NCBI GenBank assembly: GCA_051362555.1
Contig: CM120645.1
Location: forward strand, 24,580,934 to 24,644,933
DNA: 64,000 bases
DNA from: Lingula anatina
Taxonomy: Eukaryota; Animalia; Brachiopoda
Direction of reading: 5' to 3'
Part shown: in pieces, positions 35,201-62,880 of the stretch
Layout of the letters: each line of letters begins with the position of its first letter
How positions within the stretch are numbered: position 1 is the stretch's first letter
Translations under genes and position numbers: made by a program
Notes under the pieces: model-generated
Seen by the model: only the letters and a program-made list of their open reading frames with translations
Databases searched by the model: none
Told to the model about the DNA's origin: nothing

Positions 35201-38200
35201 ATTGGTTTGGTAAGTGGAAGATCCCAAGGAAAAATCTTAGAGCTGGTTGATGTTATTGTTTTTGAGCTGTAAATTAGCCCACACTGTAGATTTGAGTTTT
35301 TCCTTAGGTTCAATTGAAAGAAAAACTGACCCATCCTAAGACTGAGCTGCTATCCCTGTGTATACACAGTCGTCACTCGTTTATCAACTGATCAATTTTG
35401 ACTGGCTTAATTAATAATCAGTCTGGTGATTTTCTTTAGCCGCTTGGCTTAAAAGGTTTTGTGAATAAATACTTATATGAGAGTTACAATGAGTACATAA
35501 AATAAGATAAAAAAAAAGTTAATTTAAAAGATAAAAACGTTGATTTTATGTTCTTTAAAAATCAGAAAATATTTTGATATTGGTTAATATCATAGCATTT
35601 TTTTCCTGTCTTGAATTGATTTAATCTCACATTTAGATGAAGTTGTGACCAAATAGTGCAGGAGGCCATGTGTAGTTTTAGCTCATGTGCTCAGTTTAGG
35701 AAGCAGGGGCCTTTCAGCCACTATATCATCCTGAGTACAGGTGTCAGGCATTGGGGAGGTGGGCCAAAGGAGGAAAGATGGTGGGGGTACTTGAATTAGA
35801 GGAATTGTACAGTCATCTTTTGTAGTTTCCCTAGTAATAAACCATGCCTAGTTACCATGGGCATTTACTGGTGAAACCAGCTTGCCAGATTATAATTATA
35901 TTAAGAAAGGTCTAGCAGGTGTTCCCCCCACCCCCCTTGAAGGCCTCTGGTCAATGTTGGTGTGATCACAGTGTTAAGGTATCAAACCAGTTTTAAAAGC
36001 CACTGGTTTACGAACAGGTTGTTCTTCCATCATTATATTACCAGGAGCTATCCATGCCTGCTGATGGCTTGTGATCTATCATGAAGACAGCCCTGGAAGT
36101 CATTAGTATTGAGTAGTGATTGTCATGTGTATAATGTGACATACACAGGCAGAGAAACAGGTCTCTGTGCGCGCTAAGCCTGATTATCTTTCTAGAAATA
36201 ATCCAGAGATATCTTAAACAACCAGGTGGACAGATGTTGTAAATGTCTGAGACAAGATGGGAATATCTTGCTCTAGCATGGTGCAGCCACATGACCGGGA
36301 GTCTCCAAGGAATGGAGAAGTCAGCAAAGATAATACCCTCCCAGTTGAACAACAGCAGGATAGCAGAGAGTTCTCTAATAGTCCTAACTTACCACCAGGT
36401 AGTAGATATAGATGTAAGAGTTCTCTAGTAGTCATAACTTACCACCAGGTAGTAGATATAGATGTAAGAGTTCTCTAGTAGTCATAACTTACCACCAGGT
36501 AGTAGATAAAGATGTAAGAGTTCTCTAGTAGTCCTAACTTACCACCAGGTAGTAGATATAGATTGTGGTCACTTACTAGTAATGGTAGATTATGGATAAA
36601 GACAGTTTTGACTTATCTAAATTGTGTTAATAGTTTAAAGATGTAATATTAACCGTGTTCATGATAATTCAGGTGCTTTTGAAGTTGCAGATATTGGTTT
36701 CTTATGGATGTGGTTGATTTGTTTAAGAGTGTTTTAAAAGCATTTCGCCAAGTTTCATACCAGAGCTTCAGTTGAAAGTTGGTATTTATCTGAAGACAAA
36801 ATTTTTGTTATGTAATGGTTTTATCTTTAGTAGTCCACTAAGGTAAAGTTATTATTAATTTCAGACAAAAAAAACTTTTTATCTTTATCTATAAAATATG
36901 TCCAATAATGTCACTTAATTGGACTACAACACACTTATCTCGGGTTAAAGTAAACTGAATTTTTGTGTCAAAAAAATTACAACCATTATTCAACTTATGT
37001 TCTTTTTTGAAACTGTGACTCTCACTCAAGTTTTTTTTTTTTTTTTTTTTAACAAAAAAGGGAGAGGTGATTGTTGTTTGCTTTTGTCACTTTAAAGTCT
37101 GTTCAGTGAAACTTTTTAACAAATGCAATATGGAGGAAAGTATAAGATTGCATTCATTATATTAATTGGATCATGAAGTTGGTGTCTCATAACAGTGTCT
37201 TGAAAGAAAGATTGTGTAAGAAATTAGGAACTCAAGCTGAAATACATTTTCCATTGTATGGCTTGTTATAAAAAATGTGTTTCTGTGAGGCGTTTTAAAG
37301 CAGAAATTTGATGTATGGATTTTCACAGGTACAGTTGATGTGGATGTTTTGTGTGGGTTGGGAATTAATCAAATACATTTGGACTTGAGGAGATTTCATG
37401 GTGGTGGGTATCTTAAGTGTTATTCAGTTGCTGCAGATAAATAGTAATTCTGTGTAGAAATCAAACTGATGGTGTGAACATGGTTTGTGATCAGCTGTAG
37501 GGTTGTTTTTGATTGAGATTTAATTAAATAGGAGTGTGTGCCACAATAAGTCTCACACCATAACATGTTCTACATTGCCTGAGGTCAGCCCTCAGTCTGA
37601 AGGTTGTGTGCACTTGGCTATAATACCTTTAACCTGTGATGCCAGGCCAGTTCACCAGAAACCTCTCTCTCTTCTTCCCCCCCCCCCCCCCCCCCCCCCC
37701 CCCCAAGAATACTCACATAATATTTTATTAAACTAGTTTTGTTAGAGTAGCATCCCTGGCAATTCACAAGTATTATTTATTTATGGTACTACTTTTTGTC
37801 TTGAAGGATGTTATCTAGAAATCTTATTTGAGAAAAATATGTTATCTAGAAATCTTATTTGAGAAAAATGTGAGACTGTAATAATAATAATAATAATAAC
37901 AACAACAGCAACAGTAAATACTACTACTACTAATAATAAATAATAATAATAACAACAGTAAATAAAAATAATAAGAACAATAACAACAACAGAAAAAAAT
38001 AATAACTGTGAATAATAAAAATAGTGATGATGATGATGATGATAAAAGTGGGCCAGGATAAGATACTAAGTGAAAAGGGAAATAGAAAATGTTTTATGTC
38101 TCTGGAAGAGATCATCTTTACAATATTTTTTGCTGACATTACGTAGGGACCTTCATCCATAAATAAATAACAGTGTAAAATATATTGTTTATTTTGATAA

Positions 38201-41200
38201 AGATGGTAATCAGAGAGAGAATGTGACAGTTCATGATACTTTTCCGCCACTAGCCAGCTGATTGTCTTTGGTAAAATTAATAATAAAGGAGTAGGAATTT
38301 TTGTGAATGAATATGGAGCTTAATTTACTTGAAATATTGTTTAAAAGAACATTTAACCATTATTTATATCTTTAGTTGATAATGCTTTGTTTCTTCAGTT
38401 TCTAATAATTTGTTATCTGCTCTCTTTCAGAGCCTCCTATGAAGAACAGATACCAAAGAAGGAAATCGGGTAAGTCCACCTGTATTGGCAGTATGGAGAT
38501 ATAATACTTGTAAATCAAGTCAGGTAAGTCCAATGTGGAATATCTAACACTGTGATGTACAGGGGTTCACCATGTCTTGTATATCCTCACATTTGGCTTT
38601 CTCACCAGTAGTTAACAGAGACTAGCTTTGCAAGAATTTTATTTATATTCTATTTATCTGTATCTTTATTCAATTTGAGATTGTGTATTCAGCTATGGTC
38701 AAACAAAACTGATTTCATGTGCTATATGCTTGAGCATCAGTGTCTGTAAAAGGTTATGTGAATAAAGAGGTTTGCAGAAATCTGCCATGATACCTGCCCC
38801 CTCCCCCCCTCCTCTCCTATATGCTTCTCATTCTACCCTGTGGGGTTGTGCCAGGGTTAGACCTGTATTAATTCTCTTACTGTATCTAACATCCTGTGGG
38901 ATATGCTTCTACCCCCAGAATTTTTAAGATTCAACTGGGACAGCAAACTCGGTATTCCTGTGGTTTGTTTCCATCTTCAGTATTTGCAGCTGAATATTTA
39001 CCAAACAAACACCTTCCTTGTTTCCTTGAATTTTAACTATATTTTCTGAGATTCTAACCAGATGGTTTAAAGGCGAAAAAGTAATGTCTAATTCATATGA
39101 GACTATAACAGGTGTGCTGAGCAATTAGTCAGATTTAAGATACTAGTAACTGTTTCATCAGAATTCCTCCTGCCTGAGATATACCAGGAAGTAGTATAAG
39201 AATTTGCACCTTGCACATGTCTAGACTGTGGAGTTGGCTGACTATCACCACTGATATCTTGGCTAGGCCGCAGACACCCAGTGCTTGGAGATAAACTTTG
39301 CTGATAACATACTTTGGTTCCTTATACATTAATGCTGGTTATATTTGTCATCTTTATGAAGATATGAAGGAAAGAACAAAATGGGTTTTATAGAGTTGGT
39401 AATGGATAATAGTGAACTAATTGATAAATGAATGGTCTTATTGGGTGGATTTGAAGAAGAGACCAAAAACTAATAATGAGAAACACCTAGTTATGGTTGG
39501 GTATTATTTGTTCATTCTAAGAGCGCATTCTCAACGAATTAAGCCAGGCTTTACAAAGCCGGTGACCTAAAAATGGCGGACGTACATGAAAGAAAAACCG
39601 CCTAATCTTTTAATAGTCTCTCCGCCTCCCCACACGTCGTCCCTGCGGGGTACAGTAATTAAATCTCGGCTCCGTTCGCCATGCGGAAGCTACCTGAGAA
39701 ATATTAAGTGCGCATGCTCATCAGTTAAACTCGTGGTGAAGAAGGCATAGCGGCTGAAGGCGATCCAAAAAAAAAAGCTCTTCTGTTCTATTATCTTTGA
39801 AAACAGAGACGAAAAAGGAATAATTTGGCCCGTAGAGCAGCAATGAATCGACTATCTAAGGAGATAATATCACCAGAGATATTCACGGAAATATTAATGT
39901 TCGGAGCCGAGATTTAATTACTGTACCCCGCAGGGACGACGTGTGGGGAGGCGTGTGAGAGGCGGAGAGACTATTAAAAGATTAGGCGGTTTTTCTTTCA
40001 TGTACGTCCGCCATTTTTAGGTCACCGGCTTTGTAAAGCCTGGCTTAATTCGTTGAGAATGCGCTCAAAGTTTGTAGATTGTCCAATTAAGCTAAACTCT
40101 AGGTTGCACCTATCTGAACATGATTCACTTATCTGTGATGTCCTCACATTATATATATAAATATTATATGCTGTACAATATATATATATATATATTCTAG
40201 AAAACAGTGCTTGGACACTTTTTTGATAGGGTGATGTGATTTTTTATGTCTGATGTTTGTTTTTCTACCTTTGTTATTTTAACATTTTATCAAGGTGTAT
40301 ACTGAAATGGTGGTTTGAAATAACTGTTATCATAATGTTTTAATTCCCATGTCAGCTATAATCTGGTGAGAGGTGACCAGTTCAGGAGACAGCAGACTTC
40401 AGACGTGGGGTTTGCTCCCCTGCTTGTCTGTGTCAAGACAAGCCCTCTACTACTAGAGCCACCTGGTGGACAGAAGCTCCAGAGTGTGCTCTTGCAGTTT
40501 ACTCTATTATATTATAACCATAGCCTTAAAGCTTTTGCCAGTTTCTTGGTGCATGCGTGTAGTATAGTTATGACTGACACTTTTCAATGGAGAAATATTA
40601 TCAGTCTTTCAGCTACATGTAGTAATTAGTCATTAATGGTTTAGATGTTACCACCAGATATCAGCTATCTGAATTTTCTGCTCCATTGACTTTTATCACT
40701 ATTTTTTAATTTGATATGCCTGCATTTACATTTGTTCTGTTCTGTGACATTTCTTGTAGTAAATGTTGAATATATAATAATGGATTAAATCATGGTAAAA
40801 ACCTCTTTATATTGAAATATTAATTTCATTTTTTCATGATCCAGTCATAATCGTTGAGATAATTGTGTATTAATAAGATATGTGCCCAAAAAAGCCATGC
40901 ATAAATATCCTATAATTTCTGTGAAATTTCTGTGCTAAATAAAGAGAATACATACATTACTAGTATATATATATATATATATAATCTTTGGAAGAGACAT
41001 TTGAAAATGGATTGTAGAAAAAAGCCAGAAAAAAAAAATATGGTAATTTTAATCATTGATGCTATAGTGTCTTTTGCTGATATCTGTTCACCATGGTTAA
41101 AATAATTATATGTCTGTTTGTTGTTTGTCAGCTAGGGCAGTGCGCTATGTGAGCAGCCAGTACTTCCTGACAGTTTTATTATCAAATTACAAATATTGCA

Positions 41201-44200: not shown

Positions 44201-47200
44201 AAGGAGCTGATAAACTGTTGTTTAAACTTTGCATTTCTCATTACCAGTGAATGACTAAGGTTGCACTATCAGAACAGGACTGCCTCTGCTGCTTGGGTGC
44301 CTTCCTTCATTAATATATAGATCCAATAATCCCAAGTTTTGTTTACCAGACTGCATGGAAACTTACCATATATCCCCAAGCCAGACTGGGCATCATATAG
44401 ACAGTGTAGTTCATTATTGCCACTTCATATGATCCAAGCTTCTCTCTCAGTATCAATGTAATTAAGATCTACAGGAAATCAAGAAATAGGCATAAGGTTT
44501 CTGAGTAACTTGAGGGTCAGTTTGTAGAGACAGTAAAAGGATCACAGGAACACAGCCCACTCACAGGGTAGTAGAGGGAGGATCACAGGAATACAGCCCA
44601 CTCACAGGGTAGTAGAGGGAGGATCACAGGAATACAGCCCACTCACAGGGTAGTAGAGGGAGGATCACAGGAATACAGCCCACTCACAGGGTAGTAGAGG
44701 GAGGATCACAGGAATACAGCCCACTCACAGGGTAGTAGAGGGAGGATCACAGGAATACAGCCCACTCAAAGGGTAGTAGAGGGAGGATCACAGGAATACA
44801 GGTCACTCACAGGGTAGTAGAGAGAGGATCACAGGAATACAGCCCACTCACAGGGTAGTAGAGGGAGGATCACAGGAATACAGCCCACTCACAGGGTAGT
44901 AGAAGGAGGATCACAGGAATACAGCCCACTCACAGGGTAGTAGAGGGAGGATCACAGGAATACAGCCCACTCACAGGGTAGTAGAGGGAGGATCACAGGA
45001 ATACAGCCCACTCACAGGGTAGTAGAGGGAGGATCACAGGAATACAGCCCATTCACAGGGTAGTAGAGGGAGGATCACAGGAATACAGGTCACTCACAGG
45101 GTAGTAGAGGGAGGATCACAGGAATACAGCCCACTCACAGGGTAGTAGAGGGAGGATCACAGGAATACAGCCCACTCACAGGGTAGTAGAGGGAGGATCA
45201 CAGGAATACAGGTCACTCACATGGTAGTAGAGAGAGGATCACAGGAATACAGCCCACTCACAGGGTAGTAGAGGGAGGATCACAGGAATACAGCCCACTC
45301 ACAGGATAGTAGAGAGGATCACAGGAATACAGCCCACTCACAGGGTAGTAGAGGGAGGATCACAGGAATACAGTCCACTCACAGGGTAGTAGAGGGAGGA
45401 TCATAGGAATACAGCCCACTCACAGGGTAGTAGAGGGAGGATCACAGGAATACAGCCCACTCACAGGGTAGTAGAGGGATATCGTTAATTTTCTATCAAT
45501 ATCTTTGCTGGGGATTCCCAGTGGGTTGAAGATCTATATGTACAAAGCTTGCCACCAGAACCTGCCTTGAATAGTTGGAAAATAATATGACAGCAGGAGA
45601 CATGTTAAGAAAAAGAGAAAAAACCTAATCCTTTTGTCATGACTGGTGTATATGTCTTTGTAGAGGAGTGATGTTGACAGACAGTGATTTCACTGGTAGC
45701 CAGGTTTGTTGAGTTTATATTTCCAATGAGGTTAGACAACTGGCAATATAACATTTGGCAGGAATCAGTGGGGATTGAAAACTGGCCTTTCATAACTGGA
45801 AGCTGTGATTTGATTTGGTATATCTTGCAGAGCTTGACATTATGTTGTAGATGTCTCCACGTTATCAGGGTGCAAAATAAAGATGAGACCAGATATTATG
45901 TTAGAACCATCAGCAGCAGCTTGTAAACCAAATAAATCAACATTTTGAGGAAGGAGGAAAAATTTGAAAAATAATTACTCTTCTCCTCTTGGGGATTATT
46001 ATCGCCATAGTTTTCGCAGCACTGGTGGCTTACTCCTGGCAGAGACTACAAGTGGAGTGTACATAATACTGTGGAGGAGCCAATCAACTGAAGTAATAGG
46101 TGATATATGGGGAATATTGCCTCCATTGATTGACTGGAGAATAGTGTTGTCTGTAAGGATTGCTGCTACAGTACAGATGTCCCAGAGGCTGGGATAAAGA
46201 GTGGCTTGGTTTTGTGTTTTTGACTGGCAACCATGAGATAAGGCATAGACTTCAGGCTTTGGTTTAGACAGCACACAGGCTAGCTCACCAGTACTGTTAA
46301 GACAGCTAATCTTCTAGGTGTCAGTCTAGACCAGTGGACTTACATCTGATATGTACAGACTGGAAGTGTGGTTAAGTTGACCAATATCTGGAAAAAACTG
46401 TTAAGATAGAACCACGACTTATGTGAATGACTTGGTGAAGATGGAACCACGTGCACGCACAGCTTATTTGAATGACTTAGAAAGGTTCGAATCACATGCA
46501 TGCACAGGTTATTTAATGACATGGTGAGGATTGAACCACAGTTTATTTCAATGACTTTTTAAGGATAGATAGCCACAGCTCATTTCATGACTTGGTGATG
46601 AACTTGCTGCACCCAGCCTTCATGTCTGCAGGGATGTCACCCACCTTCTGTGGAGAAATTGAGATTAAGCCAGCAGGTCTTCATGTGAACAAGAGGTTAT
46701 TAAGTGACATTCCCAGTTCTGATTTGTACAACAATTAAATTAAGCTAATACAGTCTGTGTTTTCTATACTATTTGGACTAGAGCTCATTACTGCTTTTCC
46801 TGTTGCTGACAATATATATTTATGAGCAGTTACTCTCACTTCTACATGGAACTGGCATTATAGATACATTTGTCCCCATAGTCTTCAACCTCAGGCTTCT
46901 AATATTGATATAGATTTTGCTGCTGTGTAGGTATTTGAATATGAAAGACCAGTATTTTGGATTACTTTACAACTTGGATGCTGGCGTGTGTTGTTTATAC
47001 ATATATGCATATCTACATACATGCCATTTTCATCAGCCAACTGCCAGTTTGGATGTTTGTCAAACCACAATCTAGGTACAGGTTGTTTAAGCTCTAAAAT
47101 GGCTGTTCTCTTCGCAAACGTACTGTGCACACATGAGGTTTGTTCTTATAGGGTGAGAAATCAATTTTAGCTGACAATAACTGAAGATTCCTCACAATTG

Positions 47201-50200
47201 GTGTGAAATGAACCAGACGGTGGCCAATGATTCTGGATGTTGAATGAAGTGTAACTTACAACATTAAGGAAGTAATTAGGGGGATGGACTGCTGTTTTAA
47301 TTAAAGTGCATCTGACATCTCTTCCTAAACCCCTGGCAGTGCTAATTTGCTAGTGAAGAAGCCACTTAGTTGGATGACTTGACTTCCCCCAGGGACAGTG
47401 AGAGCTGTGCTCTAGTCCAGGAGTAGAAGGACATACTGAATGCATGGGAATAGAGAACCAAGGGATTGGCACAAATATTTATTACAAGTTTGAGTTAATT
47501 TCCAAATCAAGAGGAAGCCTCATTTCTTATGGATTTTGGTGAATGTCCAATGAAGAATCTTCATAGGAAAAGTATAAACAGAGTTACTTAGGTCCAGCTG
47601 CTTTGGTAACAAAAAATTGCCAATACCAGAATAAAAACTTGGCCGACAGTTCATGGAATAAGAAATCGTGAAATATATCAAGAAAATATGAGGACAAAGA
47701 TTGGAAGAGCATATCTCAAAGATTACATTTGATTTGTCTACACACTGTGAATAAGTGTACCTATGTTCACTGACATATTGTTCAGTAGTGCACCTCCTAT
47801 AACATATTGCTTCCCAGAAGAAATCACTTCAGTGTAATTAGTCAGTCAAGCCACCCTCTCAGTAATGGCAGAGTCCCCAGCAGGCTCTCCTGTACCTCCT
47901 AAGAGACCATTACGGAGGAGATCAGCAGGTAATGGCAGGTTTCTCTTGCACTGGGGGAGGGGAGGGGGGGGGGGAGTTCTGGCATTCAAAGAGAGAATGA
48001 TTTCTAATATGATAATATATTAATGGTGGAAACTGATAACAATACCATGCTGGCCTCTGTGATATATATATATATATATAATGTGGTTACTTTGAGCTCC
48101 ATGGACGTATGCCAGTCATTGTAAGTGCTACAAATGTTTTTACACTTGGCATTTTTAAACAACCAGGTGTTTGTTCATAATTTACTGCCACACTTGTTAA
48201 TTACCCTGTCACCATTTTTTTCAATACCTCCAGTGTATTTACCTGTAGGTGGACCAGAGCTGACAGAAACAAGAGAAAGGACAATGTATCAGGGTACCCT
48301 GATATGATATCTAAATACATGGTGTAGCACCTGTCTCAGTTATTACAAAGTTAAAACAGTTTACTAAATAAAACCTGTGTCAGATCAAGAAGTCAAGGTG
48401 TTTACCCTGTTTTACCAATTATATTATTGATTCATAATAGGCATGTAAAGTTAATTTGTCTGAAAACTCTAGCTAATAAGTTGAACTGGAAATTGGTTTA
48501 CCCCACATATTATACATGTTTGGAAATTGATCTGCTCTGACATTGTTTTTTATTGACTGTGGTCTCTAAACTACTGTAAACATACTTAAATGCTGGCACG
48601 TCTATTAATTAGACCTAAGTTATGCTATTAGATATACCCTGTAGTGCAGAAAAACGTCTTATATTAGATACTGTGCTAGAGTAATGGTTTTATTTGGTAT
48701 GGATCTAAGTTTTTCTTTCAGAAGTGTAATTTTTTTTGTCCCATCTTTTTTATTCAGGTTTTAACACTAAACGAAACAGGTAGTAAGATTATTTTGCACA
48801 TATTTTTCATGTTTAAACCAGCTTGTACTTGAACAGTAGACTGTGACTTTTCTTAATTCTAATTAGTGTTCTTTGTTCTCTTTCCAGTATCAGCAGAGAG
48901 GTATGACCCAGAGGCAGATGAAGATGAAGGGGACCAAAGGGTAAGACACTGTCCTCACACAATCAGAATCATTCTTAGACCAGTATAGGTGGCAAAAGAG
49001 GGAAAGATTTCTGTAGTTCTTGCTAAAAGTAGATATCTGAAGTCAGAAGTTTAGTCTATATTTTATGTTTATGTTATCTAAATACACGCCATGTGAAAGG
49101 TTTATGTAGACCACTGCTTTTTTCTCTGTTGCTACACTAGTACTATAGCTTACTGGCATAGATTACCAGGTGGTTTTATTTTATCCTTCACTCCTTATCA
49201 AACTACCTGCAATAGGATAATGATTACAGCCAGTGCAGTGCTGTCATTACTCGCTGCTGAAAAAAATACTGGCCTATGCAATACGATATGGGGAACATTA
49301 ACAGAAAAAAAATATAATGAAAAAATGAAAAAAAAATAGCTAAAGGAGAATCATACTTAAATATCTCATTTTGGATCTTTTTGCTTCAAAATCAATAGAT
49401 GTTGACTTAAGCATCCTATACTTAGGTTACGGGAAATAATTAGGTTGAGATATTTAGACTACTATAGCTCATGATCAACTGATTCTTTTCTTTAAGATAT
49501 AAGTCCAAAGAAAAAGAAATGTATACATTACATTGGTCAATAGTTGGTTTGGCTATTTAGGATACGGTAAACATTTTCCTTCAAATGATAAAATAAAAAT
49601 TAGGCACACAGTTGTTTTTAGAGTCGGGGGACAGTCTTAGAGGAATATGAACCAAGGAAAAACATTTGAGGCCTATGATGAAATGTATTATTGATTTGTA
49701 GCTTGAACACTGACTGTTATGTCTAAATACATCCCAGATTCCATAAAATATCTCTTAGGTAGTTGCCATGGATGATTTTAACCAAATTTAAATTTTGGGC
49801 TAAGTCATTGATATAATTAGCTAGAAAAAAATTGTAAGTATTCCCTTTACCAAGTTTGAGTATGTTGAAACATTTGGCTATAATGGGTTAAATACAGTCT
49901 GCTAGAGTGAAGCCAGACATTTGTATTGACTGTGCAGTGGGTTTAGTCAGATAATGCTGTCTTAGCTCTGGTAATAGTTCAGTATTTCCTCCAAAGCTGC
50001 TTGAACATGATTATTTTTGGAACTGGATAACTTCAGGTCATGACCATCTCCACAGGTCCAGAGTGGAAACTAGATAACATCTGGAAAAAGATTTTTTTTT
50101 TCAGTTTCATAGTATGATCAAGCGATCAACTTTGTCGTATTGCAGTCAAATTCTCTGACTAATCATGACATTGTAAATCAAATATTTTTATTTCTAAACT

Positions 50201-53200
50201 AACACAGACAACATTACAATGTAATAGTTAACAGCCACTCTTTTTGAAGTATCACTGGAAACAAATGGCATTGTTAACTTATATCCTGGTAAAGTGGCAA
50301 CATGGGTAATGTATAGAATGCCTGTCACGCAGCTCTTGGAAATTGACAGTCATTTAAGTTTCACTTTTGTCCATCAAGTGAGCAGTCTCAGCATGCAGGC
50401 TATTGATCATGTTACTGTTACTTCTCAGGTTCTGAGTAGACTGCCTCATTATCACTTGACAGGATAGAAAGCTATTGTCTTTATTTGATAGCACATTTTA
50501 TTGATCTGTTTTAAAAAAATTGCACATGCTGTTATATTAAAGCAGTTATTTTATATTAAAGGCTATCAGCTTTCCACGTGAACCGTAGTCTTGTCATACT
50601 CAGTTATCACCCTGTTTTTCTGAGTTTTACTTCTTAAATGAATACAGTTTGGTTCAACATATTAGATGTGGGTATTGAAATTTAATTTTTGCAATACATT
50701 ACCTTGACAAATAAAAAAGAAATAAACCTAAGACTAATTTTCTTGATAGTAAACTATGCATACAGTCCCTTTGATGTAATTGTTTGAATTGTTGTAGTTC
50801 TCTGTAGATTAAAAAAAAAAAACTTATTCTTCATGGTGTTAGTGTGTTTATCTTTCTAGGTAGTTCACCCAAAATCAGATGAGCAAAGAAAACGTCTCAG
50901 TGAAGCGGTGAAGAATATTCTTATCTTCAGGTCCTTAGATATTGTAAGTTAAAGATTTGGGGAAAATATCATATTTCGACATGCTTTATTTGACTATTTT
51001 CAGTGCATATCATGCAAACATTGTTCAGTAACATTTGACCTATAATTTGACCTATTATGTTGTAAATTACAATAAAAGAAATTATGTACATCAATGCAAT
51101 TTAATTGATTAATTTGACATTTTGGTTCTTAAATTGAACTGTTCCTCTCAGTTTGTTTGTATTTACCAGTTGAATCACTCTGGATCCTCAGTTCCTCTCA
51201 GCTCAACCAGATAACTGTCATATAGCTTTTCACTGTTGTTAATTCCAGGAACAGATGCAAGAAGTTATTGATGCAATGTTTGAGAAGAAGGTAGGTCCAC
51301 TTGATGATGTTCTGATATAGGCTGGCAGGAAGGGAGGGGGATATTGTTTTTATATTGTCTGTATTATGTTTGTGTGTAAATGTAGAGGAGTGTTGTAAAG
51401 CCATACAGTCCCACATGAGTCCAGGCTGTATTATGTTTGTGTGTAAATGTAGAGGAGTGTTGTAAAGCCATACAGTCCCACATGAGTCCAGGCTGTATTA
51501 TGTTTGTGTGTAAATGTAGAGGAGTGTTGTAAAGCCATACAGCCCCACATGAGTCCAGGCTGTATTATGTTTGTGTGTAAATGTAGAGGAGTGTTGTAAA
51601 GCCATACAGTCCCACATGAGTCCAGGCTGTATTATGTTTGTGTGTAAATGTAGAGGAGTGTTGTAAAGCCATACAGTCCCACATGAGTCCTGGCTGTATT
51701 ATGTTTGTGTGTAAATGTAGAGGAGTGTTGTAAAGCCATACAGTCCCACATGAGTCCTGGCTGTATTATGTTTGTGTGTAAATGTAGAGGAGTGTTGTAA
51801 AGCCATACAGTCCCACATGAGTCCTGGCTGTATTATGTTTGTGTGTAAATGTAGAGGAGTGTTGTAAAGCCATACAGTCCCACATGAGTCCTGGCTGTAT
51901 TATGTTTGTGTGTAAATGTAAAGGAGTGTTGTAAAGCCATACAGTCCCACATGAGTCCTGGCTGTATTATGTTTGTGTGTAAATGTAGAGGAGTGTTGTA
52001 AAGCCATACAGTCCCACATGAGTCCTGGCTGTATTATGTTTGTGTGTAAATGTAGAGGAGTGTTGTAAAGCCATACAGTCCCACATGAGTCCTGGCTGTA
52101 TTATGTTTGTGTGTAAATGTAGAGGAGTGTTGTAAAGCCATACAGTCCCACATGAGTCCTGGCTGTATTATGTTTGTGTGTAAATGTAGAGGAGTGTTGT
52201 AAAGCCATACAGCCCCACATGAGTCCTGGCTGTATTATGTTTGTGTGTAAATGTAGAGGAGTGTTGTAAAGCCATACAGCCCCACATGAGTCCTGGCTGT
52301 ATTATGTTTGTGTGTAAATGTAGAGGAGTGTTGTAAAGCCATACAGTCCCACATGAGTCCTGGCTGTATTATGTTTGTGTGTAAATGTAGAGGAGTGTTG
52401 TAAAGCCATACAGTCCCACATGAGTCCTGGCTGTATTATGTTTGTGTGTAAATGTAGAGGAGTGTTGTAAAGCCATACAGCCCCACATGAGTCCTGGCTG
52501 TATTATGTTTGTGTGTAAATGTAGAGGAGTGTTGTAAAGCCATACAGTCCCACATGAGTCCTGGCTGTATTATGTTTGTGTGTAAATGTAGAGGAGTGTT
52601 GTAAAGCCATACAGCCCCACATGAGTCCTGGCTGTATTATGTTTGTGTGTAAATGTAGAGGAGTGTTGTAAAGCCATACAGTCCCACATGAGTCCTGGCT
52701 GTATTATGTTTGTGTGTAAATGTAGAGGAGTGTTGTAAAGTCATACAGTCCCACATGAGTCCAGGCTGAGGCAGAAACAGTGTGAGGAGGTCATTCACTG
52801 AGGTAGTGCTAGCAATTTTTTTAGCTTAGCCTAATCGCCACTTTTTTTTCAATTTGTTATCCAGATGGTTATAATTTGACTAAAACAAGTCAAATCAAGC
52901 CCTTTTTGTTTAGCCAGTATAAGTCAGTTTTAGCATTTGGCTAAATTGGTGAGTGTTAGTGCTACCCCAGATTCACATTGACAGTTTACTAAGATAACAG
53001 TAGATTATGTGTGTTTGGCTTATATGTAGGTCTATTCCTGCTTCCATGGATAAGATAAATGAAATTCATCTATATTTTCTATTGTAGCATAGCTGCCATT
53101 GGCTAAGAACAATAGCTAGTATAGCTAAATGGCTCTGTCTGGCAAATGATTTTACTAGCTTTATGTCATAGCATCAAAACACCTGCTGCTGTCTTGGGCA

Positions 53201-56200: not shown

Positions 56201-59200
56201 TTGCCAGCACTCTGGACCCTGAAGTTCTGCAGGGGTTTGCTGGTTGGGCTAAGCAGCCAGCCACTGGGAAATTGCTACTATTGATCAGGTGCTTGTTATG
56301 GGCTCAGATGGTAAATGGCTAAGTTGGAGTAGAATTCAAGGAAAAGGGATTGTTCCCTTTGAGGCCTGTGTGACTGCATTCACTGTAAAGGGTAACATTT
56401 CGTAAAATTGAAAAAAAAATGTAACAGTAATTTGTCAGGACAAGAGAGGACATGTCTTTGTACGCGTGTATTCACATTTCTGTCTGTAGTGGTTTTGTGA
56501 GATGGGTATATATAATACAGTATATATGTGAGATGGGCATATATAATACAGTATATCTGTGAGAGGGGTATATATAATACAGTATATATGTGAGATGGGT
56601 ATATACGATAAAGGATTTCTACAAAAGTTTATACGATAAAATTTTTCAAAATAGATGTGATTTTGTTGTAAATTAAATTCTTGTCTTGTCAATTCCAGAC
56701 ACAGCCCAATGAACATGTGATAGACCAGGGAGATGATGGAGACAATTTTTATGTTATAGACAGGTAAGAAGATTTCTATGTTATAGATAGGTAAGAAGAT
56801 TTCTATGTTATAGACAGGTAAGCAGAAGATTTCTATGTTGTAGACAGGTAAGAAGATTTCTATGTTATAGACAGGTAAAAAGATTTGTATGTTATAGACA
56901 GGTAAGCAGAAGATTTCTATGTTATAGACAGGTAAGCAAAAGATTTCTATGTTATAGACAGGTAAGCAAAAGATTTCTATGTTATAGACAGGTAAGAAGA
57001 TTTCTATGTTATAGACATATAGAAGGTAATAAGACTGATAGAAACACATTAGTATGTCTTAAATATCATTGAATGTAGTTTTAAAGACCAGTAAACATTC
57101 TCTGATATGAAGTTTTTATTTCCACAAAATGCTGGCTTCACTCTTTAAGTGATATGAAATCTGTACAGGATGTTAAAAGTCAAAAACACTGAAAAAATTC
57201 AAGATAGATCCAACGAAATAAGTCGGCAACATTATAACCGATTGAGAGGCAGAAGTTTTTTTTTTTTTTTGCAAATGTTCATGAGTAAAAGGTTCTGCCA
57301 TTTGCTCGAGAAATTTTGCTTTTGCGATGGAGAGTGAAGAAGAACAATGTTGTTTTAATTTTAAGTTTTTTCATTTATTTATTTATTTGTCCACTCATTG
57401 GTTTGATGACAATTTGATTATTTAGTAAAACGAAACTAAGGTCTTGGTAAAAATAATCTTATTGGTCAAAGCAAAAGGCAATTGTGCACTGAGGTTATTT
57501 TGTTTATACATTCATTGCTGGTTCACTTCATGCAGTGTTCTCTTGATATATATACATATAATTTGTATGGATATAGTAATGCTCTAATGGGAAGTTTGTG
57601 TTCTGTTTTAGTGGTACCTATGACATCTATGTTGATGACAACCTTGTTGGTGCTTATGAAAACCAAGGCAGCTTTGGAGAACTTGCCCTGATGTACAACA
57701 TGCCCAGGGCAGCCACTATCATTGCCACCTCTGCAGGGAGCATCTGGGCCATGGTAAGACACTAGGGCTTCGTTCACATGCAATATCTATTTTCTAAAAA
57801 TCTATTTTCTATTCACGGTATATCTTGTGATCACGGTCTGTGCCCTGAACATCCCGTGGCGTAATTACTGGCAGCGCGAGCCAGTTACTTCCAAAGCTGT
57901 AATTAATTCTCGGCGCTGCCAGTAATTACGCTGCGGGGTATTCAGGGCACAGACCATGATTACAAGATACCGCAAATAGAAAATAGATTTTTAGAAAATA
58001 GACATTGCATGTGAACGAAGCCTAGGACTGGCTTCTCATACCTAGATTGATCTAACAGGATGAATCCATCTCCCAGGGTTTTTTTCGTTAAATTGCATTC
58101 AGTTTAAGTGGCTTAGATGTCTGGCATGCCTACTGAAGCTGCTTAACAATAATAAATTACCCCATAGCAGCTTCAGCATGCATGACAGGCAATTTAGTGA
58201 GAATCCCCTTAGAAATAGATCGATCCACAGTTAGTAGGATAGGATCTGGGAATGGTCCCTATGTCTTAGATGTAGGCATTGTTTTAACTTGATATAGTGG
58301 GGTAGGATAACAAATACATATTTTGTTACAGCAGATTCATCATGGCTCAAATACTACATGGTCACCAAGCCAACAGATATCTTTATTATCAGCAGGGATT
58401 TCTTGGAGTGTGGGGATGGATTAATTCACAAAACAGTGTTTTTATCTAACTGCTTCAAATTTTGACATCACCACTATTTGTGTCATTTCATGACATTGTG
58501 ACCAAATAAAGTGATGTTATACTTGTGTTTTCACTTCCTACCATGTGTCTGACCTGGGTCTAAAGACCAGCTGGCATTTTCTCCCATGTCAATATCTATT
58601 CAGCCCTGTATTCATTATTTTTTATCTGGAACTGCATTACATTTAATGGCTTTCTGATGAACCTATACTGAACATTATAGCAGCAGATAATCCCTAGTTA
58701 AGTGGTATCATTGTAAGATAGAGAGGACACAGAATGGCTATTGTTGTAGCAGACCTCCCAGAGGGTCTAGCTACCTAGGGTAAATGACGTCAAGGTTGCC
58801 CTCAGACCTATGAAATAGGCTGCTAGCACAGAAATCTTGACCTGGTCAACTGGTACTGTTCCAAGAGATCTTTATGGATGTCATATCATCTCAGATGTGT
58901 AGAATGAGGTACAGATAGGGGAAGAAAGGGGAGGGGGAGAGAGAGAGAGACTTGATTTTTCCCCTGTATAACTCAGATAGTAATAACCATTATTTTGCTA
59001 TATACTCCAGTGGTTTTCTGTTAGCCTCACTGCACAAAGACATGGTAGTCTGTGGGGAGACATCAGTCTGTGATACATTATGTATTCAGAGTCCCAGCTT
59101 TTAGTGGCAATCAGCTGAATACTTTATAACAGTGCCATGTGTTTGGCGCCTGGTGTATGAGACAATATACACAGGTGCCAGCATAGCCTCTATGCCATCC

Positions 59201-59799
59201 ATTGCCTGGTGCATAAGGTTATCAAAAGCTGATTTAGTTTTGAGAAATATTACTCCTGAAGATGGTGTAAATTTTATTTTCCATTTTATCCCTCTCTCCT
59301 TTCCTCCAGGCCAGTGTTTTGTGATAGAGATACACCTCCTTACAATTTACTGTTGGGCTCTGCCTAAAGATATTTTCTTTAGCTTCAACATTTTTCTGTT
59401 GATAATCCTGAAATAAATATTTTACTTCCTTGCAAAAGGGTAAAGGTGGAGCCGAGCACAGCATGGGGGTTGTACATGTTCTTATAGAAATGTAGTGATT
59501 TTAATTTTTTTTATTTTTATCTAGGACCGTCATACATTCAGAAGAATAGTACTCAAAAATGCCTTTAACAAGAGGAAAATGTATGAAAACTTGTTAGAAA
59601 CTGTGCCTATGCTCAAGACACTAGAGGTAAGGAAGAATCAAGATTTGTTCAATGGCAGAAATGCATAAAAACTCATGTTTTTGCTTACATTGGTGTGTAA
59701 CATATATGTGCAGGAGTACGGGTTCTTGCACGCATGCGTGCACATGTGGACATACACATGATCTCACACACATGGCAAAATGATTTATGTGAGTGTGCG

Positions 59800-59853
<54 letters not shown>

Positions 59854-62800
59854 CTTAGAAAGGAGAGCTGGCAGCCATTGCTGCTTATGTGTCTGAATCC
59901 TAAGTCCATTAACATTTAGCCTGTCATTAAAAGAAATAATGTAATAGATAGGGAAATACCTGTTGTTAAATATGATACCATGTGCTTCTGTAGTTACAGA
60001 AACATGCTATCTGCAGGTATACTCACCAACATTTATTATGACCAAGTACAGGGGAAAACTTGACTGGAATGTATTTTTGGAGGGTCCTAATTTTACTGAA
60101 TGTCTAAATTGGACTTCTGTTGTTTATTTTGAGAAAGACGTAACTATGCTGTCAATTTATAAGCGCTCTACCAGATGCTAGTTTTGACATACATACATAT
60201 TGGAAAAATTATTCCCAAGTCAGATAACTCAAGATTACATTACATTGCGTGCATGAATATATCAGACAAGTATTTTATAAAGCTAATTAACTGTTGATAG
60301 TATTTAGCTGAATCATCTTTGTATTGATTTTCTCCTTCAGCCTTATGAGAGAATGAATGTAGCTGATGCCTTGATCTCAAAGACATATGAAGATGGAACA
60401 CAAATTATCAAGCAGGTAATACAGCCACTGCATAAACCTGACATCAGTAGATGTAGTACACATACAGACTTTAACTGATCTTCATTCATATACAAACTTA
60501 AACAGATGGGTAACCTTCCATGGGTTTAACTATACAAAGCCCTGTATGGCTATTATAGATACAGATGTTTAAAATATTCTTTGTCATATGAAAAGAACCC
60601 ATGACTGTCTTCCTGTCAATATTGTTAATTATGACAACTTGAAGTAGGCAGAGCTCTGAGGCAGGTGTTCCCATACTGTTTGTGCAGGTCACAGCGGGTG
60701 GTAGTGCAGGTACAACTTTAGTCTCATTTCTTCATCCACCTCTCAATGGTCATTTCATTAATATTTTCACTTTATTACTTCTTGTCATAGAGGAGGTTGG
60801 GCAGCCAGTCTCCCTACACATTGTCTCCCACAGCCCCCCCCCCCCCCCCAACCCCCATTGATTTACATATAAGGTACCCCTTTTGTCAGCTTCAAGTAGG
60901 CTCCTGGGTAAAATACAAGTAAGGTTCACAAAGTTAGTGAACTCCTTCTCAGGGTACTCTACCCCAGTGTGATGTATTTCTCAGTATCTTCTACTTCGGT
61001 GTGTTGTATTTCCAGGGAGACACAGCAGACTGCATGTATTTTGTAGAGTCAGGAGAAGTGAGGATCACTGTGAAGGTAAGTGGGTAGTAGGCTTGTAGTC
61101 ATGTGTGCAGTATTTATATAGGACAGATGTGTCACCCAGTCAACACATTTATATCACTGTGATGTGTTAACTGTGTCACCCAGTCAACACATTTATATCA
61201 CTGTGATGTGTTAACTGTTTCACCCAGTCAACACATTTATATCACTGTGATGTGTTAACTGTGTCACCCAGTCAACACATTTATATCACTGTGATGTGAG
61301 TTGTGTCCTCCCATAATTGTGATAAACAGATTTTGTAAGGCAACAAGTACTGAAATATTTTGGTCGTTTTTGTTGAGTGTCAATTAACTTAATTTGACAG
61401 TAAATCTACATGTTCATCTATATTTTACCTACATGTCACCTCTGTTTCAAACTTTTCTTTCTTTTATGTGTTGAAATTATTTCTTTTTTCAGAATGATAG
61501 TAATGACGAAAAGGAAGTAAACAGGATAAAGACAGGCGGTTACTTAGGAGGTAAGACACTTAATGTCACTAGCAGACCCTAAATGTCACTAACAGACCTT
61601 AAATATCACTGGCAGGATTTAAATGTCACTAGCAGGCCTTGCATATAACTGGAAGACCTTATATGTCAGATACAGAACCTAAATATCACTGGCAGAACTC
61701 AAATATCACTGGCATAATTTTGATATCACAAGCAAGTCTTAAATATCACTGGCAGAACTCAAATATCACTGGCATAATTTTGATATCACAGGCAAGTCTT
61801 AAATATCACTGGCAGAACTCAAATATCACTGGCATAATTTTGATATCACAGGCAAGTCTTAAATATCACTGGCAGACCTTAAATATCACTGGCATAATTT
61901 TGATATCACAGGCAAGTCTTAAATATCACTGGCAGACCTTAAATATCATATGACACCACTTGGCTATCAACCATGGGTTGATTATGCTGGTAAGGTGGTA
62001 GTTTATATGACTTATATATATTTATAGTTAAATTGTCAACAAGTTGTTGGTGATATGGACCTTTCACACATATACAGACAGTATATATATATATATATGT
62101 ATTACTTTGAATTTCCAGAGCTGGCACTTCTAACCCACAAACCAAGGGCGGCGTCTGCGTATGCTGTGGGTACTACTAAGTGTGCAGGTACCCTAGTCAT
62201 TTCTACACACTCTTTTATTGGAATAGAGGAAAAAACATTTCATATACATGAAACCCCATATTTTTTTTCAATTTTTACAAAATTGCAGGATGATAATTTG
62301 GATATGAAGACTATGCAAAAGGAGTGATGTTTGAGATGGAGTGTTTTAAAATATGAAATGGGGAAGGATTATTCGTTTAACTATTGTTGAAATGGTTGAT
62401 TTTGTGTAATTCCAAAGTGTGGAGCTCTTCTAGGGACCATTCCCACAGATATTTGGATTGATCTATCTTCCTGGGGAGTCTTACTAAATTGCCATCAACT
62501 TTACTGACTTAAATGTCTGTCACGCCTAGTAAAGCTGTTAGGGGGTAATTATCTCTACCCCCTAACTGATTCGGTAGGCGTGACAGACATTTAAGTCAGT
62601 TAGTTGATAGCAATTTAGTGAGACTCTCCAGGGAGTTAGACCGATCCAGATGGATCGATCTAGGCATGGGAAGAGGCTGTTCCACTTTTCTTTAGTATTA
62701 TAAAATTACGTGTTTATGTATATTCTTATAGCATCCATCTGTATTTCAGTGCTTGATGTTCAAGCTTTTGAGCGTCTCCTGGGGCCTTGCATGGATGTCA

Positions 62801-62880
62801 TGAAACGGAATATAGATGAATATGAAGAACAGTTAGCTCAAGTCTTTGGCTCAAAAGTGGAGATCACAGACCTACGATGA
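15431..62880 (+). CDS. PRKAR2: cAMP-dependent protein kinase (PKA) type II regulatory subunit, complete spliced CDS (13 exons, 383 aa)
   Basis: Exons 15431-15662 (D/D domain [38 protein letters not shown]), 38431-38469 ([12 protein letters not shown]), 48888-48940 (VSAERYDPE), 50860-50943 ([13 protein letters not shown]), 51249-51290, 56699-56763 ([15 protein letters not shown]), 57612-57753 ([18 protein letters not shown]), 59525-59626, 60341-60415, 61016-61075, 61493-61550, 62119-62187 ([14 protein letters not shown]) and 62750-62880 ([20 protein letters not shown]...TDLR*). All introns are GT-AG and phases are consistent; the total is 1152 nt. The RRxS site and RII-type D/D domain define type II. 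Confidence 0.97.
16937..17012 (+). CDS. PRKAR2: Putative alternative first coding exon of PRKAR2 with RRGAV pseudosubstrate motif
   Basis: gacATG...GCA GTA G|gtaaga; [25 protein letters not shown]. 76 nt (25 codons + 1), phase 1 as in the canonical exon 1, with an in-frame TAG just upstream. Locally GC/CpG-rich within a CpG-poor intron. Confidence 0.7.
20375..20578. repeat. 34-bp tandem repeat, 6 copies
   Basis: (TAGAAGTTCTGCTGTTCAAGTGTGCCACACTGGA)n. Confidence 0.95.
21250..22075. repeat. 105-bp tandem repeat, about 8 copies
   Basis: Unit TGGCGTCCAGTTAACACCCAGACAC...ATCATTGCTGCTG; explains the repetitive 298-aa ORF. Confidence 0.96.
23031..23745. repeat. 53/54-bp tandem repeat, about 13 copies
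   Basis: Unit CAGTCTCAGTTCTAGTCAGTTATATTTCAGTACATTACTGGTCAGACT(T)CCCTT. Confidence 0.95.
24119..24164 (+). CDS. PRKAR2: Putative alternative first coding exon of PRKAR2 (short acidic leader)
   Basis: aagATG AAG AGA GAT GAG AGT TTT GAG GAT GAA GAT ATT TTC GAT GAA G|gtattt; [15 protein letters not shown]. Phase 1 and purine-rich; resembles the acidic linker before the PP...RRxS segment. The donor is only moderate. Confidence 0.5.
24283..24600. repeat. Degenerate tandem repeat of about 45-55 bp with internal inverted repeat
   Basis: Recurrent GTTGACCTTCT...AGATGTCAACCC, about 6-7 copies. Confidence 0.85.
25427..26517. mobile_element. Non-autonomous hAT-like DNA transposon (about 1.1 kb)
   Basis: Perfect 17-bp TIR CAGACTTTACGAAAGGC / GCCTTTCGTAAAGTCTG; subterminal GTC(A/G)GACCG repeats at both ends; flanks ATATTTTT / ATTTTTTA (imperfect 8-bp TSD). 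No transposase ORF. Confidence 0.82.
27834..28052. repeat. 73-bp tandem repeat, 3 copies
   Basis: CTCACTTCAGTACTGGTGG... starts at 27834, 27907 and 27980. Confidence 0.93.
29086..29191 (+). CDS. PRKAR2: Putative alternative first coding exon of PRKAR2 with N-myristoylation motif
   Basis: aacATGG (strong Kozak); [35 protein letters not shown], then G|gtaaaa. 106 nt (35 codons + 1), phase 1; Gly2/Thr6/Lys7 pattern. Confidence 0.7.
30729..30942. mobile_element. Related Harbinger-like MITE
   Basis: TAA|GACCACATTCCCAGAAATTAGATCGATC ... GATCGATCTAAATTCTATGGGAATGCACCC|TAA. Confidence 0.75.
32221..32463. mobile_element. MITE of the GGGACCATTCCCA family
   Basis: Internal palindrome TTAAGTGGCTTAGATGTCTGGCACGCCT...AGGCGTGACAGACATCTAAGCCGCTTAA; similar to 58026-58259 and 62433-62678. 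Confidence 0.78.
33091..33580. repeat. 83-bp tandem repeat, about 6 copies
   Basis: TATCTCACCCAGTGTCCTGTAAGGCAGTCATTTCTGATGTG... at 33091, 33174, 33257 and onward. Confidence 0.95.
36257..36398 (+). CDS. PRKAR2: Putative alternative first coding exon of PRKAR2 with myristoylation/palmitoylation motif
   Basis: aagATGG (strong Kozak); [47 protein letters not shown], then G|gtagta. 142 nt (47 codons + 1), phase 1; Gly2/Cys5/Ser6. Confidence 0.65.
36368..36563 (+). repeat. 50-bp tandem repeat, 4 copies, spanning the donor of the putative exon 36257-36398
   Basis: GAGTTCTCTAGTAGTCATAACTTACCACCAG|GTAGTAGATATAGATGTAA. Confidence 0.94.
39521..40066. mobile_element. Young MITE with TIRs of about 150 bp (PIF/Harbinger-like)
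   Basis: GAGCGCATTCTCAACGAATTAAGCCAGGC...CTCGGCTCCG is matched almost perfectly in reverse complement at 39902-40066. CpG-rich; left flank TAA, right flank AAA. Arms are related to the element at 43152-43464. Confidence 0.88.
42805..42978. mobile_element. Degenerate palindromic MITE
   Basis: GGCCCCATTCAGAACAGCAGACTAACTAGT ... ACTAGTTGGTCCACTGTTTTGAATGCAGCC. Confidence 0.65.
43152..43464. mobile_element. PIF/Harbinger-like (Tourist-type) MITE
   Basis: TAA|GGGACCATTCAGAATGAGAA ... TTCTCATTCTGAATGGTCCC|TAA; long imperfect inverted arms and a 3-bp TAA target-site duplication. Confidence 0.88.
44539..45479. repeat. 41-bp minisatellite, about 23 copies
   Basis: (GGATCACAGGAATACAGCCCACTCACAGGGTAGTAGAGGGA)n. 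Confidence 0.97.
47865..47928 (+). CDS. PRKAR2: Putative alternative PRKAR2 inhibitor-site exon (RRSA), as first exon or as internal exon from acceptor at 47862
   Basis: ccctctcag|TA ATG GCA...CGG AGG AGA TCA GCA G|gtaatg; [21 protein letters not shown], joining in frame to (V)SAERYDPE at 48888. Aligns with [12 protein letters not shown] of exon 38431-38469. Confidence 0.78.
51359..52768. repeat. 67-bp minisatellite, about 21 copies
   Basis: (CTGTATTATGTTTGTGTGTAAATGTAGAGGAGTGTTGTAAAGCCATACAGTCCCACATGAGTCCTGG)n, starting about 70 nt after exon 51249-51290. Confidence 0.97.
55165..55506. repeat. 48-bp tandem repeat, about 7 copies
   Basis: (GGGATGAACTGGGTCATTAGAGGTCATCTAGTATTGTACAGATATGAG)n. 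Confidence 0.96.
56496..56605. repeat. 31-bp tandem repeat, about 3.5 copies
   Basis: TGTGAGATGGGTATATATAATACAGTATATA units. Confidence 0.88.
56746..57017 (+). repeat. 27/30-bp tandem repeat spanning a PRKAR2 5' splice site (9 GT donors)
   Basis: Unit TTTCTATGTTATAGACAG|GTAAG(CAG)AAGA; GT at 56764, 56791, 56818, 56848, 56875, 56902, 56932, 56962 and 56992. Confidence 0.95.
57766..58022. mobile_element. Hairpin MITE (Harbinger-like) 12 nt downstream of a PRKAR2 donor
   Basis: TAG|GGCTTCGTTCACATGCAAT...ATTGCATGTGAACGAAGCC|TAG; arms pair for more than 100 bp; 3-bp direct repeat TAG. Confidence 0.88.
58026..58259. mobile_element. MITE of the GGGACCATTCCCA family
   Basis: Ends in CTGGGAATGGTCCC; collinear similarity to 32221-32463. 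Confidence 0.78.
59803..59849. repeat. (CA)n microsatellite
   Basis: Read directly. Confidence 0.95.
61128..61298. repeat. 44-bp tandem repeat, about 4 copies
   Basis: (TGTGTCACCCAGTCAACACATTTATATCACTGTGATGTGTTAAC)n. Confidence 0.93.
61560..61949. repeat. 20-bp monomer repeat with 60-bp higher-order unit
   Basis: AAATATCACTGGCAGACCTT-like monomers; 61681-61920 forms four near-identical 60-bp trimers. Confidence 0.9.
62433..62678. mobile_element. MITE of the GGGACCATTCCCA family (opposite orientation)
   Basis: Starts GGGACCATTCCCAC; palindrome ACTGACTTAAATGTCTGTCACGCCTA...TAGGCGTGACAGACATTTAAGTCAGT. Confidence 0.78.

Follow-up and report, generated by a model that had tools for sequence, protein, structure and literature searches.

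A Ser at the P-site of the inhibitor sequence, as against an Ala or Gly, has been treated as the fixed divide between the RII and RI subunits of PKA. The window studied here, a stretch of 64,000 nucleotides of Lingula anatina DNA, contains a PKA RII gene (PRKAR2 family) that encodes both kinds of site by exon choice, and the question is what sort of subunit is made when the Ala-site exon is used. The original prediction was that this exon, with the site RRSA-V, could convert RII into an RI-like pseudosubstrate subunit, starting either at its own ATG or from splice acceptors behind one of the gene's other leaders.

The RII gene and its two inhibitor exons

All exons of the gene lie on the + strand. 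The D/D-domain first exon at 15431 to 15662 (Pfam RIIa, PF02197, E=3.2e-10) gives a predicted form of 383 aa by computed splicing; this exon, although intact, is absent from all three RefSeq isoforms in the protein cluster, and a protein search with it returned four matches, none from the Lingula RII gene. An alternative leader at 29086 to 29191 begins MGSIF, a sequence suggestive of acylation at Gly2, and its spliced product is identical to RefSeq isoform X2 (P0051). The leader of RefSeq isoform X1 was placed at 36257 to 36398 by tblastn of P0152; it differs from RefSeq by one residue (Pro in the window, Gln in RefSeq) and terminates within a 50-bp tandem repeat at 36367-36563. The canonical inhibitor exon, identified at 38431 to 38469 by translation and by the loose ends of RNA reads, encodes 13 residues with a Ser P-site and is followed by the donor G/gtaagt. 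The first common exon, at 48888 to 48940 by translation and RNA reads, starts with the P+1 Val and reads VSAERYDPE. The ten common exons after it (50860-50943, 51249-51290, 56699-56763, 57612-57753, 59525-59626, 60341-60415, 61016-61075, 61493-61550, 62119-62187 and 62750-62880), which bring the common exons to 11, encode CNB-A and CNB-B; their spliced translation matches exactly both P0051 and the isoform X3 protein, P0151, in which two cNMP_binding domain matches were found. Exon 56699-56763 ends in sequence that, donor included, is repeated in tandem about ten times between 56745 and 57017 (27-bp unit), which creates many decoy donors.

The coding part of the alternative exon, at 47865 to 47928, consists of 21 residues plus the first base of a Val codon. 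As predicted, it opens with its own ATG at 47865, behind an in-frame stop (TAA at 47835-47837), carries the inhibitor site R18-R19-S20-A21 at 47916 to 47927 (Ala21 codon, 47925-47927), and ends at the donor G/gtaatg. Joining 47928 to 48888 in phase 1 completes the Val codon, the common exon beginning TA, and the canonical exon ends in the same phase; because the phase-1 intron parts the P-site codon from the P+1 Val, a single upstream exon sets the P-site residue. Splicing from ATG 47865 gave a protein of 314 aa identical to RefSeq Lingula anatina RII isoform X3 (XP_023932347.1), whose N-terminus is this exon, so that isoform X3 already existed as an automatic gene model. The RefSeq label is just 'type II ... 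isoform X3', whereas the protein has an Ala P-site and no D/D.

The 12 codons before every G/GT position on both strands of the whole window were compared with 20 distinct peptides from homologous inhibitor exons, and the 47928 donor ranked second of 1366 positions, with a score of 16.8 compared to 30.6 for the canonical exon and 7.1 for the next position (mean -14.3, sd 6.2). The likeness of this peptide to inhibitor exons is not due to chance. At the DNA level the likeness between the two inhibitor exons was equalled by 51 of 4913 random windows and wider flanks failed to align, and descent of the alternative exon by duplication of the canonical one is therefore only weakly inferred. The N-terminus of Lineus isoform X6 (P0024) aligns by eye, ungapped, with 47865-47927, including PxGSP, and keeps RRKS. 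The CAG/GTAATA sequence which had been pointed out at 41201 as a candidate non-coding donor is present in the window.

RNA evidence and apparent use as a first exon

RNA reads were taken from four of the nine listed runs (X1, X4, X7 and X9), using 6-30 in 100 of the reads of each, and were placed over 45500-51340, where the depth was low (14-63 reads per run). The predicted joint 47928>48888, which removes a GT..AG intron of 959 nt (47929 to 48887), was found in nine reads from three of the four runs and two of the three studies: none in run X1, two in X4, four in X7 and three in X9, with two read starts each. Three more loose ends in run X7 continue into the sequence of the common exon. For the canonical joint 38469>48888 the evidence consisted of loose ends, seven in run X1, three in X4 and eight in X9, with a mixed row of five in X7; alternative and canonical joints thus stood at 2 vs 3 in run X4 and 3 vs 8 in run X9. 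Across the intron bins 48035-48814 the depth was zero in all runs.

Upstream of ATG 47865, reads of runs X4, X7 and X9 covered about 1 kb, 46865 to 47864, which is likely 5' UTR; note that 46865 is the edge of a depth bin and not a mapped 5' end. In runs X7 and X9 the depth reached the 46865-47059 bin and was roughly even from ~47.1 kb to the donor; in run X4 it was patchy, its strand being that of the common exons, and in run X1 no depth was seen upstream of the ATG. The exon therefore behaves as a long alternative first exon and not as a cassette, and because it acts as a first exon the isoform X3 product lacks the D/D. Sample-specific use of the exon is suggestive only: the difference between runs X1 and X7 gave p=0.017 by Fisher's test if a ceiling of five canonical reads is assumed for X7, and that between X1 and the other runs pooled gave p=0.07. 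Depth in runs X1, X7 and X9 was also present at 45500-46279, with a gap before the 46.9-47.9 kb block, and may mark a further upstream exon or a repeat.

Relative to the window, runs X7 and X9 had 20 listed differing sites in 47089-47888. Those in the coding part of the alternative exon were two silent changes and Gly7>Arg, the latter in run X9; none of the listed variants fell at the ATG or in 47889-47928, a gap that is not significant (P ~0.37), and no indel was listed across the stretch covered by RNA reads. The difference of ~2.5 in 100 sites (47089-47888; also 50880) suggests that these two runs came from a divergent population.

In the other mode of use in the original prediction, the exon would be entered from acceptors at 47862 or 47880 (AGs at 47861-62 and 47879-80) and would stand in for 38431-38469 downstream of the D/D or acylated leader; the resulting RII would have a site of the RI type and be dimeric or membrane-bound. 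The phasing was right, since either acceptor matches the D/D exon in phase; actual use of the acceptors was not supported. They score -2.8 and -7.0 (the 58th and 33rd percentiles of AGs), 11 of the gene's own 12 acceptors scoring 5.3-12.1 and one -1.1; the depth was flat across them, with seven reads at each of 47858, 47870, 47883 and 47888 in run X7 and four at 47844-47888 in run X9; coverage continued upstream, none of the loose ends listed for the four runs fell at either site, and RefSeq isoform X3 begins at Met 47865. We regard this use of the exon as very improbable. A transcript that is real but little translated, acting as regulatory or wasted RNA either through its ~1-kb uORF-rich leader or through an upstream exon joined into ~46931 with an early stop, deserves more weight, though we still think it unlikely. 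The 934 nt of 46931-47864 hold 21 ATGs compared to 19 expected from intron, with no depletion, and because of these upstream ATGs in a read-covered leader translation of isoform X3 may be weak; the even depth over the leader, the AG at 46930 with its score of 3.5 (92nd percentile of AGs) and the failure to find an orthologue among 266 homologues are likewise consistent with such a transcript. It fits poorly, however, with a peptide that stands so far beyond chance on the inhibitor-exon profile, with a frame that is open through the full CNB region, with the good context of the start codon (gtaATGG), which no uORF overlaps and before which the last uORF stops 27 nt upstream, and with the sizeable share of joint reads taken by the alternative exon in runs X4 and X9.

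P-site register and subunit class

The placing of Ala at the P-site was upheld by alignment. Residues 11-66 of isoform X3 align ungapped with RIIβ 102-157 (3tnp), R18 to A21 falling on Arg109-Ser112 and Ala21 on Ser112, which is the residue named as the P-site of RIIβ (PMC4497662); the spacing of six from the P-site to Tyr (P+6) is kept and is the same in 195 Ser-site proteins compared. The original prediction had also cautioned that RRRS in a shifted register is itself a PKA consensus, and Arg17-Arg18-Arg19-Ser20 is indeed a direct match to RRxS. Ser20 is thus a possible shifted P-site, and the subunit might instead be an inhibitor of the substrate type, in which Ser20, accommodated in the holoenzyme by a bulge of one residue or else acting after release by cAMP, would take the place of the P-site residue; the exon end TCAGCAG/gt can be aligned as the canonical end TCGG/gt with an insertion of 3 nt. 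Such a register requires Ala at P+1 and a shift of the V-S-A-E-x-Y linker by one residue, and docking from P-3 to P+1 is common to RI, RII and PKI (PMC6143667). Of the proteins compared, only P0151 and P0249 place a Ser at the second residue ahead of the V/I-x-A-E anchor, and in the normal register each of them also reads RRx[A/G]. We consider a substrate-type inhibitor improbable; the free subunit might be phosphorylated on Ser20. The same RRSA-VSAE occurs in P0221, an unrelated R-like protein with cNMP binding.

With Ala21 taken as the P-site residue, the 'RI-like' part of the prediction held for the P-site and failed for the rest of the protein. At the level of sequence isoform X3 has the RRx[A/G] pseudosubstrate feature of PKA RI and lacks RRxS before the P+1 Val, which is present in the canonical exon; it shares with RI subunits the Ala P-site and the Arg residues at P-3 and P-2 (for the RI motif see PMC4497662 and PMC12608923). 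Unlike RI, it has an RII-like linker and no D/D: a Pfam search of P0151 gave no match to RIIa (PF02197) or any other D/D family. Residues 1-66 matched RIIβ/RIIα with E ~1e-13 and RIα with E=0.36, no RI-type linker or core sequence was found, and the closest PDB matches were RIIβ/RIIα. The protein has the RII-type pair of CNB domains, and a tree built from 43 rows, none of them RI, placed its core among those of lophotrochozoan RII with RRxS. We concluded from the E-values and from this placement that isoform X3, which would work as a pseudosubstrate R subunit, is not a member of RI.

Homologues and predicted behavior of isoform X3

Conservation of the RRxA exon in related species, to which the original prediction had looked, was not found: the other animals sampled yielded no orthologous exon, and no other brachiopod was identified among the matches. 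The homologue and cluster searches, one of which contributed its best 120 of 504 matches, gave 266 homologues, of which 233 had RRxS, two RRxA, six no RR, 23 no anchor motif and two were cut; apart from isoform X3, the only RRxA protein was a bat RIIα-like paralogue (P0091, RREA). No second gene making both Ser and Ala sites was seen among the 266. Among representatives at 50% identity, 103 rows were of at most 620 aa (47 longer rows were left out), and the 43 at an identity of at least 50% comprised 23 with Ser, two with Ala, one with Thr and 17 without a motif match. The Ala-site RII-like proteins, P0091, P0235 (RRVA), P0278, P0323 and L001 (all RRQA) and L002 (RRTA), have the RII-type linker like isoform X3; they are apparently separate genes, three with D/D, and none turned up as an alternative exon within a gene that has a Ser site. 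Two of them, L001 (RRQA at 1012-1049, - strand) and L002 (RRTA at 152-189, + strand), are divergent proteins encoded on metagenome contigs and form their own long branch in the tree. They came from a search of metagenome sequence for the pattern RRx[A/G]-V-x-A-E-x-Y-[D/N]-P-E, which gave four loci; the other two were rejected as chance matches in GC-rich frames with no R-subunit sequence. In Takifugu RIIα-B isoform X3 (P0101) the leader is short and lacks RR ahead of the P+1 Val, and together with the bat P0091 this suggests the same exon border in vertebrates.

RII isoforms that lack the D/D and have alternative leaders are common, occurring among others in Lineus (X2-X6), Tubulanus, Biomphalaria (X5-X7), other snails, Branchiostoma and decapods, the decapod forms without D/D having been reported (PMC12608923). 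Those examined, from Lineus, Tubulanus, snails, Branchiostoma and others, all keep the RRxS exon, whereas Lingula isoform X3 replaces it. The snail leaders P0158, P0159, P0382 and P0384 carry Cys clusters, which are candidate palmitoylation signals. According to a survey published in 2025 that covered 1122 PKA-R sequences, RRxS is entirely conserved in metazoan RII, brachiopods not being among the phyla that it lists (PMC12608923), and in mussels the type I and type II subunits are separate (PMC13425070). A full-text search of the literature, outside of which most subscription papers lie, yielded neither a description of the Lingula isoform nor any account of an RII gene in which a pseudosubstrate exon is used as an alternative. 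Isoform X3 is transcribed and annotated in the database but apparently unremarked, and it breaks the rule that RII has Ser by the choice of a first exon. Its reach is limited: the case has so far been seen in Lingula alone, the gene model was already in the database, and the protein is a predicted one.

We propose, with a probability of about 0.6, that isoform X3 acts as a pseudosubstrate subunit that has an RII core, lacks the D/D and is unanchored. A separate promoter near 46.9 kb would drive the alternative first exon, and translation from ATG 47865 would yield the 314-residue subunit. Arg18 and Arg19 would occupy P-3 and P-2, Ala21 P0, and Val22 the P+1 pocket; the P-3 to P+1 sites of the C subunit are filled alike by RI, RII and PKI (PMC6143667). 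Having no D/D, the protein would neither dimerize nor bind AKAPs and would be monomeric; it would likely inhibit the catalytic subunit and still release it in response to cAMP. Autophosphorylation in the holoenzyme would not occur, and C could therefore re-bind without a phosphatase step.

An engineered protein of nearly the same design has been studied. RIIβ(102-416), which has no D/D, binds C with a sub-nanomolar KD in a tight complex releasable by cAMP, and phosphorylation of its P-site slows re-association ~60-fold in MgATP; the S112A change 'barely affected binding kinetics', the mutant's binding of C being nearly that of the wild type (PMC4497662). From the behavior of RIIβ(102-416) and S112A, isoform X3 would be a monomeric, cAMP-releasable, phosphatase-independent inhibitor. 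Stable binding of C requires ATP and a divalent metal for RI and not for RII (PMC6143667); because S112A barely altered the kinetics, Ala alone does not imply an MgATP dependence of the RI type. Isoform X3 is thus a natural, predicted counterpart of the S112A protein, from which it differs in arising by exon choice and in having an extra Ser at P-1, and the two Lingula forms offer a matched pair, with the same CNB core and either Ser or Ala, for isolating the effect of the P-site on re-association and ATP dependence. A bolder version, in which promoter choice in this one RII gene would supply an abundant, tissue- or stage-specific, monomeric, AKAP-free and phosphatase-independent R subunit with RI-like ATP dependence and a Ser20 phospho-switch, throughout the brachiopods, seems to us doubtful.

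Upstream of the RII gene the window contains a Bap31/Bap29 gene (5271-5510 and 5882-6055, + strand; 8902-9081), in which two tandem exons both correspond to one stretch of the Bap31 profile (~60-116) and are possibly mutually exclusive duplicates.
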